Of a stretch of DNA of 53,146 nucleotides, positions 8,055 through 49,118 are shown piece after piece (position 1 is the stretch's first letter; each line of letters begins with the position of its first letter). The position numbers and the translations under genes are program-made. The DNA is from Patescibacteria group bacterium (GTDB taxonomy: Bacteria; Patescibacteriota; Patescibacteriia; UBA10025; JAHIVO01). The notes under the pieces are model-generated. The model saw only the letters and a list, made by a program, of their open reading frames with translations, was not told the DNA's origin and searched no databases. The DNA lies in contig JAZDEZ010000016.1 in NCBI GenBank assembly GCA_043808365.1, forward strand, positions 1 to 53,146. The letters are read 5' to 3'.

Positions 8055-8394
8055 TGGCTGCGAGACCTGCCCCGCCCTACTTTAATATATTTAATTAATT
8101 GTGGCGGGGGAACCAGGATTAACGGATTCAGCCCGCCCCGCCTGCTTCGCGCATGCGCGATCCTCTTCTATTCTCCGAGGCTTGGAATCGAACCAAGATT
8201 GCATGATTCAGAGTCATGCGTCCTACCGTTAGACGACCTCGGAGAGCAGCAGAGGAATTGGTTGTTTGATATTAGTTATAATTAAGGGCGGCGAAGCGGG
8301 CCGGGGAGTCCGTCGTCCTACCATTCCCGCCCAAAGGGTGGGTCCGCCTCTGGCGGAAGACCTGCCCTGAGCGAAGTCGAAGGGCGATCTCGCA
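8055..8394 (-). pseudogene. Full-length tRNA-Gln(CTG) relic interrupted four times; the intact tRNA lies inside one insert
   Basis: Removing 8070-8109, 8132-8306, 8326-8357 and 8361-8384 gives TGCGAGA TC GTCT AATGGT AGGAC G ACGGA CTCTGAA TCCGT TAAT CCTGG TTC-----CAGG TCTCGCA G CCA. Confidence 0.85.
8173..8243 (-). tRNA. tRNA-Gln(CTG), intact
   Basis: Acceptor TCCGAGG/CCTCGGA, anticodon arm CATGA-CT CTG AA-TCATG, T-arm CTTGG TTCGATT CCAAG. Confidence 0.95.
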
Positions 8395-8430
8395 GCGCTG
8401 TGTTCAATTATCAAATAATATATCCTACAT

Positions 8431-8593
8431 TGTATGATTCAGCCTGCCCCGTCAATTTCGAACGAAGTGAGAAATTATACGGGGAGTCATGCGTCCCCGC
8501 CTCTCCGGCGGGTCGCCGATGAGGCGACTACAATTCTTCAGTCCGCCTCTGGCGGAAGACTTACCCTGAGCGAAGTCGAAGGGCGATCTCGCA
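8431..8593 (-). pseudogene. Second tRNA-Gln relic (5' two-thirds) with four palindromic inserts
   Basis: Removing 8443-8484, 8496-8527, 8536-8556 and 8560-8583 gives TGCGAGATCGTCTAATTGTAGGACGCATGACTCTGAATCATACA. Confidence 0.8.
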
Positions 8594-46951: not shown

Positions 46952-47956
46952 TTATATCTTTTTACCGATTGACTGGCAAATGCGGACCAGGGTATTTGAA
47001 TATCCCCATTCATTGTCATACCAGGCGACGACTTTCAGCAAATCCCCGTCAACAACATTGGTCAGCGATAAATCAACGATGGAAGCATGGGAATTGCCGA
47101 TAAAATCAGATGATACTAGCTCCTCTTCCGTCACATCCAGGACACCCTGATACCTTGGCTCATCTTTTGCCGCTTTGAACGCCGCATTTACTGCATCAAT
47201 TGTCACCGGCTTGCCAACCACCATCGTGATATCAGAGAGAGAGACAATGGGTGTCGGGACGCGGATTGATATGCCGTCAAACTTACCTTTGACCTCTGGC
47301 ACCGTTTCTCCCGTCGCAATCGCCGCGCCTGTTGAGGTGGGGACGATATTCGCCGCGGCTGCGCGGGCCCGGCGGAGATCTTTATGCGGCCCATCCACCA
47401 AATTCTGGTCGGCCGTATATGAATGGATCGTGGTCATCATCGCTTTTTTGATCCCAAATGAGCGATTCACTATTTCAATGACCGGAGCGATGCAGTTAGT
47501 GGTACAGGATGCGTTAGAAATTATTTTTTGGCCCTTAAGTTTCGCGTCATTGACGCCGAGGACGAACGTATCGACACCGCCGCCTTTGGCTGGCGCGGAA
47601 ATCACCACGCGCTGCGCGCCGGCGGCCAGGTGCGACGCCGCCTGTTCCTGTTTGACGAACCGGCCGGTCGACTCTATCACCACGTCAATCTTTAAATCCT
47701 TCCAGGGCAATTTATTCGGCTCCTTCTCCGCCAGGACAGGATACTCTTTCCCGTCGATCACCAATGATTTGCCGTTTGATTTCACCAGCTTTTCGTATTT
47801 GCCGTACACGGTGTCGTACTGCAGCAGATGCGCCAGCGTGGCCGTGTCCGTCAAATCATTGATCGCCGCCACCTCGACGTCAGGCTTGGTCAGGGCGATT
47901 TTGAATGCGGCCCGGCCGATCCGGCCGAATCCGTTAATGGCTAATTTTGTTGTCAT
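46952..47956 (-). CDS. gap: Type I glyceraldehyde-3-phosphate dehydrogenase
   Basis: INGFGRIGR, SNASCTTNC, RRARAAA, WYDNEWGY. Confidence 0.98.
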   Translation of the reverse strand: MTTKLAINGFGRIGRAAFKIALTKPDVEVAAINDLTDTATLAHLLQYDTVYGKYEKLVKSNGKSLVIDGKEYPVLAEKEPNKLPWKDLKIDVVIESTGRFVKQEQAASHLAAGAQRVVISAPAKGGGVDTFVLGVNDAKLKGQKIISNASCTTNCIAPVIEIVNRSFGIKKAMMTTIHSYTADQNLVDGPHKDLRRARAAAANIVPTSTGAAIATGETVPEVKGKFDGISIRVPTPIVSLSDITMVVGKPVTIDAVNAAFKAAKDEPRYQGVLDVTEEELVSSDFIGNSHASIVDLSLTNVVDGDLLKVVAWYDNEWGYSNTLVRICQSIGKKI

Positions 47957-48080
47957 AGTTTTCGTCTATATAAGTCTAATAAATCATTCATAAACGCACA
48001 CGCCCCGTTACTCCGACCCCGTATCCACAATTTCGCTCCGCAAAACGGGGCAGGCAAGTCCGGGGGAGGAGTCATACGGG

Positions 48081-48215
48081 GCCAAAACCATTGATCGCTA
48101 ATTTAATTGGCATAGATATACATTTAAATTGTTTAATAATTCGTTCCCAGTTGCGCCGAGCGTAAACAAGGTGTTATCCAGGGCCGAATCCGTTAATGGC
48201 AAGTCTGATCGGCAT
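48081..48215 (-). pseudogene. Two relic gap 5' ends (11 codons each)
   Basis: 48183-48215 = MPIRLAINGFG; 48081-48113 = MPIKLAINGFG; the live gene starts MTTKLAINGFG. Confidence 0.9.
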
Positions 48216-48233
48216 ACATGTATAAATTACTCA

Positions 48234-49118
48234 TTAAATAATATGTGATTTCTTGACAATGCCGGCACTGCCGAACATTTTGACTTTTTTCTCAACAATC
48301 TCCTGGATGGCCACAATCGACGGGGACAGGAGTTCGCGCGGATCAAATATGGAGGGATCATTATCAAGCGTTTCACGCAATGTTTTGGTAAAAGCAATGC
48401 GCATTTCCGTATCAATGTTTATGATCGTGATGCCGAGCTTCACGCCCTGCTGGATCTGGTCCGCGGCCAAACCGGACGCGCCATGAAGCACCAGCGGGGT
48501 ATGTGGAATCAAACTGTGGATTTTTTGCAGCCGTTCCAGGTCCAGGCCAGGCATCCCCTTCCTCATTTTAATAATGCCATGCACGTTCCCGACCGCGACT
48601 GCCAGGGTATCAACCACAGTTTTCGTGACGAATTCCAGAGCTTCTTCTGGCTTGGTCATGAGTTTGACTCGCTCTTCAGGATCGACTTCTTCCAAGCCTT
48701 TGACCACGCCCAGCTCGCCCTGGGCCAGGACGTTGCGGCGATGGGCGAAATCCACCGACTGCTTGGTCAAAATTATATTTTCAATCAATGGCATTTCGGA
48801 CGCATCCATCATGATCGAAGAAAAACCGGCACGGACGCATTCGGCAACCGACCGGAAACTTCGGCCATGGTCCAGGTGCAATGCGACCGGGACGTTGCCG
48901 GATTCGGCCGCGACCACATTCTGGACAATCGAAGTGATAGCCTTCAGCCCGCCGTATTCAATGCTGGTTTCTGATACCTGCAAAATGACCGGCGACCGCT
49001 GGCGGGCAGCGGCCCGGACCACCCCGAGTGTTGTTTCCAAATTCTCAATATTGAATGCCCCGAGGGCATAGCCCTTGGCCCGGGCATCTTTCAAAAGTTC
49101 CTGGAGGTGTACGAGCAT
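48234..49118 (-). CDS. fba: Class II fructose-bisphosphate aldolase
   Basis: GAFN, LHLDHG, MMDAS, GNVHG, LVLHGASG, INIDT. Confidence 0.95.
   Translation of the reverse strand: MLVHLQELLKDARAKGYALGAFNIENLETTLGVVRAAARQRSPVILQVSETSIEYGGLKAITSIVQNVVAAESGNVPVALHLDHGRSFRSVAECVRAGFSSIMMDASEMPLIENIILTKQSVDFAHRRNVLAQGELGVVKGLEEVDPEERVKLMTKPEEALEFVTKTVVDTLAVAVGNVHGIIKMRKGMPGLDLERLQKIHSLIPHTPLVLHGASGLAADQIQQGVKLGITIINIDTEMRIAFTKTLRETLDNDPSIFDPRELLSPSIVAIQEIVEKKVKMFGSAGIVKKSHII

Follow-up and report, generated by a model that had tools for sequence, protein, structure and literature searches.

Upstream of gap, the gene for glyceraldehyde-3-phosphate dehydrogenase (GAPDH), a Patescibacteria group bacterium carries two dead copies of the gene's own start, each 34 nucleotides (nt) long and each cut at the same point of the reading frame. 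The gene lies on contig JAZDEZ010000016.1 of assembly GCA_043808365.1, a stretch of 53,146 nt that we call the window; the genome to which it belongs is referred to below as G000 (1.03 Mb in 24 contigs, 88% complete). We favor the interpretation, at a probability of about 0.6, that short cassettes headed by a hairpin resembling repetitive extragenic palindromes (REPs) enter conserved gene starts, each bringing along a substitute for the start it displaces, and that the spacer in front of gap holds two such cassettes. The insertion architecture is well supported, whereas the enzymology and the origin of the duplicate start are what we infer.

Two displaced gap starts end at the same nucleotide

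The gap gene (47956-46952, minus strand) encodes a protein of 334 residues with Pfam domains Gp_dh_N and Gp_dh_C. It is preceded on the same strand by fba, which encodes a class II aldolase and spans 49118-48234 in the list of open reading frames (ORFs), its TAA stop codon falling at 48236-48234. The spacer between the two genes is 277 nt long, is present once in G000, and is composed, in gene orientation, of 18 nt, relic 1, unit X, relic 2, unit Y and the live start. Relic 1 (A1; 48215-48182, minus strand) is a dead gap start of 34 nt, ATGCCGATCAGACTTGCCATTAACGGATTCGGCC, that encodes MPIRLAINGFG and begins 18 nt past the fba stop. Relic 2 (A2; 48113-48080, minus strand), also 34 nt, reads ATGCCAATTAAATTAGCGATCAATGGTTTTGGCC and encodes MPIKLAINGFG. 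The first 34 nt of live gap (A3; 47956-47923, minus strand), ATGACAACAAAATTAGCCATTAACGGATTCGGCC, encode MTTKLAINGFG and lead on into RIGR. A repeat search grouped A1, A2 and A3 into a single family of direct repeats, spaced 102 and 157 nt apart, and together with the ORFs this bears out the coordinates and peptides of the initial annotation, which had reported two dead 5' ends of gap ahead of the live start.

All three blocks end in GGCC, after which live gap goes on with GGATCGGCCGG (GRIGR) and both relics run into a C-rich hairpin. The earlier proposal that both relics are cut at the same codon can be sharpened to a single nucleotide, which is identical in the two and carries an ambiguity of 2 nt since the inserted hairpin also starts with CC. 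Each relic forms an ORF of 13 codons, relic 1 ending in GFGPG with a TAA at 48174 and relic 2 ending in GFGPV with a TGA at 48072.

Unit Y (48079-47957, minus strand) separates relic 2 from the live start. The nested palindrome previously noted after this relic proved to be one copy of a hairpin that we call H lying within the loop of another, the fold of 48081-47957 comprising three nested stems at -40.5 kcal/mol. The outer H (48081-47995, minus strand; CCCCGTATGACTCC...GGAGTAACGGGG plus tail) scores E = 0.011 with the covariance model R1 described below, and its head is the last CC of relic 2; the inner copy (48017-48058) has the opposite orientation, on the plus strand, and scores 37.6 bits (E = 1.9e-8). 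Between the H tail and the live ATG lies the spacer S_Y (47994-47957, minus strand), which carries a module, GTGCGTTTA..ATTTATTAGAC.TTAT (47999-47970, minus strand), that unit Y has in common with the spacer of a cassette at a TatD gene elsewhere in the genome. Unit X (48181-48114, minus strand) leads to relic 2 through an AT-rich spacer (48137-48114) that follows a possible decayed H (48183-48138). Its loop, TTTACGCTCGGCGC, looks by eye like that of the inner H, and the unit is possibly, at best, a decayed H. We also considered unit X as the relic of a foreign fba 3' end, and rejected this as no convincing frame could be found by eye.

The assembly of the spacer is in part confirmed by a 193-nt contig of run X3, which spans 48167-48359 with four differences and includes the end of fba, relic 1 and 15 nt past the break. 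This is the only useful piece among the independent contigs (run shares ≤0.12), none of which lies over 47963-48064 or 48116-48166; among the RNA runs, none contains the stretch. The fba and gap genes belong to an operon tpi-fba-gap, whose first gene, tpi, lies at 49905-49123 on the minus strand, and G000 encodes a second GAPDH paralogue (contig C7, 114669-115676) that is 47% identical to the gap product of the window.

Ancestry of the three gap starts

Comparison with relatives indicates that A1 is the ancestral gap start and that about 260 nt have been inserted at nt 32-34 of the gene, because A1 matches the gap start of the same-genus genome G001 at 31 of 34 nt, occupies the same position relative to fba, and is now separated from a gene body that is itself native. 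Past the break, live gap shares 91%, 88% and 86% amino acid identity with three same-genus genomes, the highest value being that to G001, and the gap starts of the eight nearest relatives lie 20-30 nt after fba. Relatives are also free of relics. The gap loci of 29 relatives contain no second gap start (a single NGFG start in 28, none by regular expression in one), and no relic occurs at 80 metagenome gap loci, all of which are at most 64% identical and three of which lack the motif by regular expression; one of these 80 has two whole gap genes. The peptide pattern AINGFG-P, found twice in G000, occurs in none of 400 other genomes of the class. A native-like relic 1, a native body and relic-free relatives together support the earlier view that insertion at one site in gap brought in a new N terminus and a new translation start. 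The survey of relatives for zero, one, two or more relics that had been suggested along with it thus returned zero throughout, and the larger element that might have been expected at this codon was not found between fba and gap in the 29 relatives or the 80 metagenome loci.

Of the 34 nt, 10 distinguish A1 from A2. Third codon positions account for eight of these differences (P = 0.0034 for eight or more of 10), one is a synonymous change at the first position of a leucine codon, and one exchanges arginine for lysine. The two relics therefore differ largely at synonymous sites, as had been stated; the description applies less well to the live start, in which residues 2-4 differ. The live start is a mosaic. 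All seven of its differences from A1 fall in the first 15 nt, a segment that agrees with A2 at 12 of 15 positions, and the remaining 19 nt match A1 throughout. This fits a crossover or conversion tract inside the 34 nt. Among approximately 110 gap loci we found no donor for A2 or for the live start, the best match to A2 being 27 of 34 nt. A2 diverged within a working gap gene of another lineage before it was brought in, because decay in place would strike all codon positions and because A1 has hardly changed since the split from G001. We take relic 2 and its spacer to derive from a diverged lineage, so that at least one of the two gap units came by horizontal transfer.

The same signature appears at a GTPase gene of another lineage (locus L195), where relic and live start differ at 11 of 46 nt, nine of them at third positions. 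At gatB of G000 the relic and the live start differ at only two of 43 nt and have derived synonymous states in common relative to the genus, which points to a start of local or within-population origin.

The H hairpin family

H is a hairpin of approximately 45 nt with the form CCCCGTA, variable stem, loop CTCACTNCGTTC, TACGGGG and a tail CARG. We defined it by regular expression and by alignment of 14 copies, from which the covariance model R1 was then made; the base of the stem (CCCCGTA/ACGGGG) is invariant, the inner stem is variable, and no Rfam family matches it. R1 finds 22 copies in G000 at E < 0.01. By our reading of the layouts, nine lie in dead 5' fragments of tRNA genes (Ile, Thr-UGU, Thr-GGU, Asp, Arg-like, Gln, Phe, Pro and Lys), each closely followed by a live tRNA of the corresponding type, and four lie reversed in the T-loops of dead 3' tRNA fragments. 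The rest comprise four at the 5' relics of protein genes (gatB, HMA-1, HMA-2 and TatD), the nested copy at gap, and four of unclear context. Units bearing H thus separate a displaced native gene end from an intact gene, both at 5' ends and, mirrored, at 3' ends. The head of H abuts the relic, and its tail faces the spacer and the new gene end. Removal of H restores the tRNA-Asp, tRNA-Gln and tRNA-Thr sequences exactly, and for this reason we consider that H inserts without target duplication.

The window itself contains a further copy identified by R1 (8439-8484, minus strand), inside a dead tRNA-Gln fragment at anticodon loop position 33/34, upstream of live tRNA-Gln (8244-8172). In all, the region 8172-8484 (minus strand) holds two dead tRNA-Gln fragments upstream of live tRNA-Gln(CUG), both broken at position 33/34, one with an intact H and the other with a decayed H-like hairpin, as well as several small CCGCC/GGCGG hairpins.

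Two other tRNA loci have a more elaborate layout. On contig C22 (3300-4250), a 19-bp inverted repeat with H-type ends encloses a live tRNA-Thr(UGU) and itself interrupts the anticodon loop of an older tRNA-Thr, the 5' and 3' halves of which remain on either side, with more fragments outside. The live tRNA-Leu(CAG) of contig C15 is similarly enclosed by old 5' and 3' fragments. G000 also carries a separate element of approximately 104 nt that resembles a miniature inverted-repeat transposable element, with terminal inverted repeats CCCCGTTAGAAAATGTACA and flanks TCAA...TTGA; a regular expression finds five copies (C8:32250, C15:106524, C21:22069, C21:125507 and C21:132976).

Displaced starts at other protein genes

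We scanned G000 for relics by comparing ATG-started 27-mers with the sequence up to 330 nt upstream of each gene start (≥20 of 27 identical), with reversed queries as the control. The scan gave seven hits versus none in the control: gap twice, gatB, two genes for HMA-domain proteins, a PfkB kinase gene, and one protein repeat. The last of these, on contig C3 and internal to its protein, was discounted. A protein-level scan had likewise picked out gatB and the PfkB kinase gene; its hits on contigs C17, C8, C21 and C3 were set aside as hairpin repeats or internal protein repeats. At gatB the relic is 43 nt long, and the insert begins with a CCCCGTAT...TACGGGG hairpin as in unit Y. Both HMA genes are cut after GMH in the GMxCxxC motif and carry the same H subfamily, and a TatD gene has a relic of 12 nt followed by two copies of H. 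The end of the relic coincides exactly with the head of H at gap relic 2, HMA-1, HMA-2 and TatD. In genomes of the same genus the corresponding sites of gatB, TatD and the HMA genes are empty, and it is again the relic that keeps the ancestral upstream sequence. The relic of the PfkB kinase gene (C22:25691-25900) is followed by a 150-nt imperfect hairpin that belongs to another family, so displaced gene starts are associated with at least two hairpin families. The insertion site A|TTGC recurs only at HMA and GTPase genes.

At gatB (C24:26415-26530) and HMA-1 (C14:1638-1770), the ORF of the relic continues across H and the spacer to a TAA that overlaps codons 2-3 of the live gene, an arrangement that could allow termination-reinitiation coupling; no such overlap is present at gap, HMA-2 or TatD.

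More than the hairpin travels, because the spacers of different cassettes are in part related. The spacer of unit Y is homologous to that of TatD (GTGCGTTTA..ATTTATWAGAC.TTAT; none of 500 shuffles scores as high), and the two HMA cassettes have 12 nt in common after the hairpin. A loose two-part version of the spacer pattern has 27 matches in G000, of which, by our reading, just two, those at gap and TatD, are good. The comparisons do not support copying of the native upstream sequence as the source of the new spacers, whose similarity to the cognate upstream region (12.1) does not exceed that to non-cognate regions (11.1, sd 3.1; 11 cases). Likewise, 281 of 500 shuffles score as high as the unit X spacer against the native fba-gap spacer, and an 11-nt match between the HMA-2 spacer and the native gap upstream region (1 of 500 shuffles) is possibly due to chance among 28 comparisons. 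Because the spacers are unlike the native upstream sequence, the duplicated stretch must begin at the ATG or within a few nt of it. S_Y presumably supplies expression signals, including a promoter, for the gene that now follows it.

H and relics in other lineages

Of 24 relatives searched with R1, 15 contain H: 11 of 15 from the same family, four of five from two sister families, and none of four from other families of the class. Among 20 H loci in these relatives, a tRNA gene lies within the 840-nt piece at 18, and by reading, the flank of H repeats part of a tRNA in all 20. Copies at the same tRNA site in different genera have variable stems in common, as in the near-identical H copies at tRNA-Gln in G000 and G015, and the pair at tRNA-Ile in G000 and G006 shows a compensatory change in the stem.

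A strict H pattern searched over one genome per prokaryote species returned 30 stretches, from Kerfeld-, Falkow-, Komeili-, Uhr-, Azam- and Magasanikii-bacteria, from Peribacteria, and from a few bins labeled otherwise. A tRNA gene is nearby in 20, two are 5S rRNA copies, and five are relics of protein genes (L174, L181, L194, L195 and, with two relics, L196), in each of which the relic ends exactly at the H head. By Pfam these genes encode two EF-G-like GTPases and one LepA-like GTPase, all cut in the RNIGIIAHID region, one YebC, and one protein without identification. At L196, the YebC locus, identical relic-H-spacer units occur twice in tandem with a period of 114 nt, which is the picture seen at gap but in another gene and another lineage. 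In a Peribacteria-labeled genome (L200; G410:C50:498-1161), two tandem 5S-like copies each contain H and a second hairpin.

Taken together, H is a mobile single-hairpin family of Patescibacteria. Its targets are very conserved and probably highly expressed sequences, namely tRNA loops, 5S rRNA and the N-terminal motifs of GAPDH, GatB, HMA proteins, TatD, translational GTPases and YebC.

Candidate enzymes

G000 encodes six Y1_Tnp (PF01797) ORFs, one of them an IS200-like TnpA, for which the end of a second copy is also present, and five resembling REP-associated tyrosine transposases (RAYTs), of 176-228 residues. Across the 24 relatives, H and Y1 genes are found together in 13 and are both absent in nine; two have H without Y1, and none has Y1 without H. 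Tyrosine recombinases (PF00589) give no match in the 88%-complete G000. One large serine recombinase ORF (C21:66477-66914, 522 residues) lies near a tRNA-Glu gene, far from gap. Two ORFs for reverse transcriptases (RVT_1; C1:2088-2699 and C15:42772-43350, 412 and 330 residues) are present as well, but we rejected a route by reverse transcription, as such genes occur in four of 15 relatives with H versus three of nine without it and so show no link to H. The most likely mover of H is a Y1 HUH transposase of the IS200/RAYT type, acting on single-stranded DNA; we infer this mode of action because H is a single hairpin, makes no target duplication, and is biased toward sequences that fold, such as tRNA loops, or that are heavily transcribed.

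Discussion

In the model that we favor, each cassette at gap consists of a GC-rich H hairpin, an AT-rich spacer and a replacement for the first 34 nt of the gene, and it is inserted at nt 32-34, within the codons for GFGRIG. Since a copy of the gene start forms the end of the cassette, the downstream gene stays intact ("self-healing"), and the old start becomes a relic abutting the head of H. The unit formed by H, the spacer and nt 1 to p of the gene would be bounded on both sides by the same target sequence, and one recognition event could cut both. A circle might then be released and, within that cell or in a different one, re-insert ("home") into a naive gene copy at position p, perhaps aided by homologous pairing over the 12-46-nt stretch of gene. 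Repeated insertion, or unequal exchange between the repeats, would stack relics cut at the same codon. The initial annotation had proposed two successive insertions at gap; insertion at one site stands, but succession is unproven, since two units entering in turn, a second unit entering the relic, and a double unit arriving ready-made would fit equally well.

Several observations weigh against this interpretation. Unit X is at most weakly H-like, with a match to R1 of E = 2.1 (-0.3 bits), although the match lies exactly at the break of relic 1. The sequences to the left of H have no common motif, the flanks ending in A, CT, TC or GG. Cassette insertion leaves unexplained why the duplicate has its boundary at or near the ATG and is preceded by a spacer unlike the native upstream sequence, and a scan for promoters and terminators found no consensus sigma-70 site on the gap strand and no promoter consensus in the spacers. 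In the run contigs (at the shares given above) we saw no circle, empty allele, polymorphism or joint. The case for a Y1 enzyme has its own difficulties. The association of H with Y1 genes (Fisher's exact test, 4e-5 overall and 0.0014 within the order) ignores shared ancestry, and G005 and G015 have H without a Y1 match. The 200-nt flanks of the six PF01797 ORFs contain no H, and two RAYT-like genes (C8:22532-22864 and C1:24400-24708) have their own flanking hairpins on both sides, of the CCTCAACNAGTTGAGG and CCGACTGAAGTCGG types, so that they look like classical REP/RAYT modules distinct from H.

The start duplicates could instead have come first, by slippage or unequal crossing-over, with a site-specific H accumulating afterward in dispensable dead copies of which it was not the cause. 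We regard this order of events as unlikely, though it accounts for several loci. The tRNA-Asp units are plain tandem copies with identical 21-nt spacers and have H inside the relic rather than at its end, and relics of tRNAs, with H in a loop, and of 5S rRNA usually run 6-24 nt beyond H. The tandem full-length 5S-like copies of L200 lie just downstream of an intact 5S rRNA (89.7 bits), the 114-nt period of L196 joins two identical units, and the derived synonymous states that the gatB relic and live copy have in common fit local duplication, with no need of transfer. The tRNA, 5S and gatB observations also tell against cassette insertion. What duplication does not readily produce is the exact junction of relic end and H head at gap relic 2, HMA-1, HMA-2, TatD, L174, L181, L194, L195 and, twice, L196. 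A simple tandem duplicate would bring the native upstream sequence along, which the spacers do not resemble (the scores of 12.1 and 11.1 given above), and the gap and TatD spacers have a module in common. Moreover, decay in place does not yield the third-position differences of A2 and L195.

Scars of a much larger element, such as a phage, an integrative and conjugative element (ICE) or an island whose attP carried a gap start and whose interior was later deleted, would have the same topology, since attL and attR with a duplicated gene end look identical to what we see; elements of this kind are also known to form tandem arrays at a single att site, and G000 contains one ORF for a large serine recombinase (C21:66477). 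We consider such scars very unlikely, because the 88%-complete genome has no tyrosine recombinase match and every instance, that is, six relics in five genes of G000 and six relics at five loci in other lineages, is 60-170 nt long with the same hairpin and no gene remnants inside. In addition, H also inserts as a bare 45-nt unit, and nothing larger lies between fba and gap in any of the relatives or metagenome loci surveyed. It is more doubtful still that the 13-codon upstream ORFs and hairpins are a selected device of the host, acting as a leader or attenuator or as a terminator-promoter insulator for gap. The 13-codon ORFs of both relics are intact, stems are kept at the same tRNA site across genera (including the compensatory change at tRNA-Ile between G000 and G006), and the relic ORFs of gatB and HMA-1 read through H to stop a few nt past the live ATG; yet the arrangement at gap is absent from all relatives surveyed, the ORFs of relics elsewhere vary in length and stop position, and unit X is decayed. 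Finally, strain variants of the gap start from a mixed population might have been stitched in tandem by the assembler, a concern raised by the 24-contig, 88%-complete state of the assembly and by independent contig support confined to 48167-48359. Such an artifact is highly improbable, since the intervening sequences are unique and structured rather than allelic, the architecture recurs at five other loci of G000 and in closed or near-closed genomes of relatives, and the X3 contig crosses the break of relic 1.

Insertion of hairpin cassettes that carry a replacement start thus remains our preferred explanation. More tentatively, H cassettes may represent a new kind of protein-less, single-hairpin "homing cassette" whose right end copies the start or end of its target gene and which a Y1 transposase would move between cells as a circle. 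Elements of this sort might colonize essential genes (tRNAs, 5S rRNA, GAPDH, GatB, EF-G, LepA and YebC), rewriting their starts and expression signals and stacking relics as they do so, a possibility that we hold with the same reserve. If cassette insertion is correct, the essential, conserved genes of these ultra-small bacteria are routinely re-headed by mobile cassettes of about 100 nt, and the starts, N termini and presumably promoters of core genes are mobile characters of partly foreign origin. This would bear on annotation (false starts, short "ORFs" and tRNA pseudogenes), on phylogenies that include the 5' ends of genes, and on the regulation of core genes in streamlined genomes. Selfish elements would then have a third means of persisting within essential genes, in addition to splicing (introns and inteins) and att duplications made by an integrase. 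RAYT-like Y1 transposases, whose biological role is debated, would gain a concrete substrate, and stacked relics would provide a datable record of past events.

Comparison with known systems

In open-access full text and preprints we found no description of such cassettes in Patescibacteria, and passages of 10.64898/2026.05.13.725050 and PMC3733652 are not relevant to them. The nearest precedent for the replacement of a gene start comes from integrative elements. Islands in dusA, such as IMEVchUSA3, and the ICE SXT in prfC insert within the first codons and supply a diverged N terminus together with expression signals, as a section of PMC8409611 describes, citing Hochhut and Waldor 1999. As with the gap units, these elements leave the old start at the far junction and have direct repeats of the gene end at both junctions. 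They are, however, kilobases long and move by attP x attB recombination with a tyrosine integrase and an excisionase, whereas the units here measure 100-160 nt and consist of a hairpin and a spacer. G000 has no PF00589 match, its serine recombinase is far off on C21, and the units contain no coding remnants.

Islands and prophages that target tRNA genes regenerate an intact gene, leave a displaced fragment and build up tandem or nested series. These are large, integrase-driven elements that mostly affect 3' ends, whereas 5' as well as 3' ends are displaced here, by units of tens of nt. Homing introns of groups I and II and inteins favor the most conserved motifs of essential genes and preserve their function, but they are removed at the level of RNA or protein, whereas here a spare gene end keeps the function at the level of DNA; neither a splicing signal nor an endonuclease is evident in the H units. 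Diversity-generating retroelements, with their template and variable repeats (TR/VR), do not match either, since the differences between A1 and A2 are of all kinds and reverse transcriptase genes do not co-occur with H.

Like H, REPs and their paired forms (REPINs) in REPIN-RAYT systems are short, GC-rich, imperfect palindromes present in many copies, and Y1_Tnp genes co-occur with H across the relatives. REPs are extragenic and cluster around a RAYT gene, and to our knowledge they neither carry nor displace gene ends. H, in contrast, lies almost only in dead gene fragments; it has no GTAG/CGTC tag, starts with CCCC at the junction inside such fragments, and flanks no Y1 gene. The miniature elements derived from IS200/IS605 insertion sequences, known as palindrome-associated transposable elements (PATEs), resemble H in inserting without target duplication. 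They differ from it in having a fixed tetra- or pentanucleotide 5' of the insertion and distinct left and right hairpins, whereas H is a single hairpin with no such fixed sequence. H cassettes are in substance closest to REP/RAYT systems and to these miniature elements, yet they fail the defining features of both, and there is a fair chance that they constitute a class of their own, that of self-healing homing cassettes.

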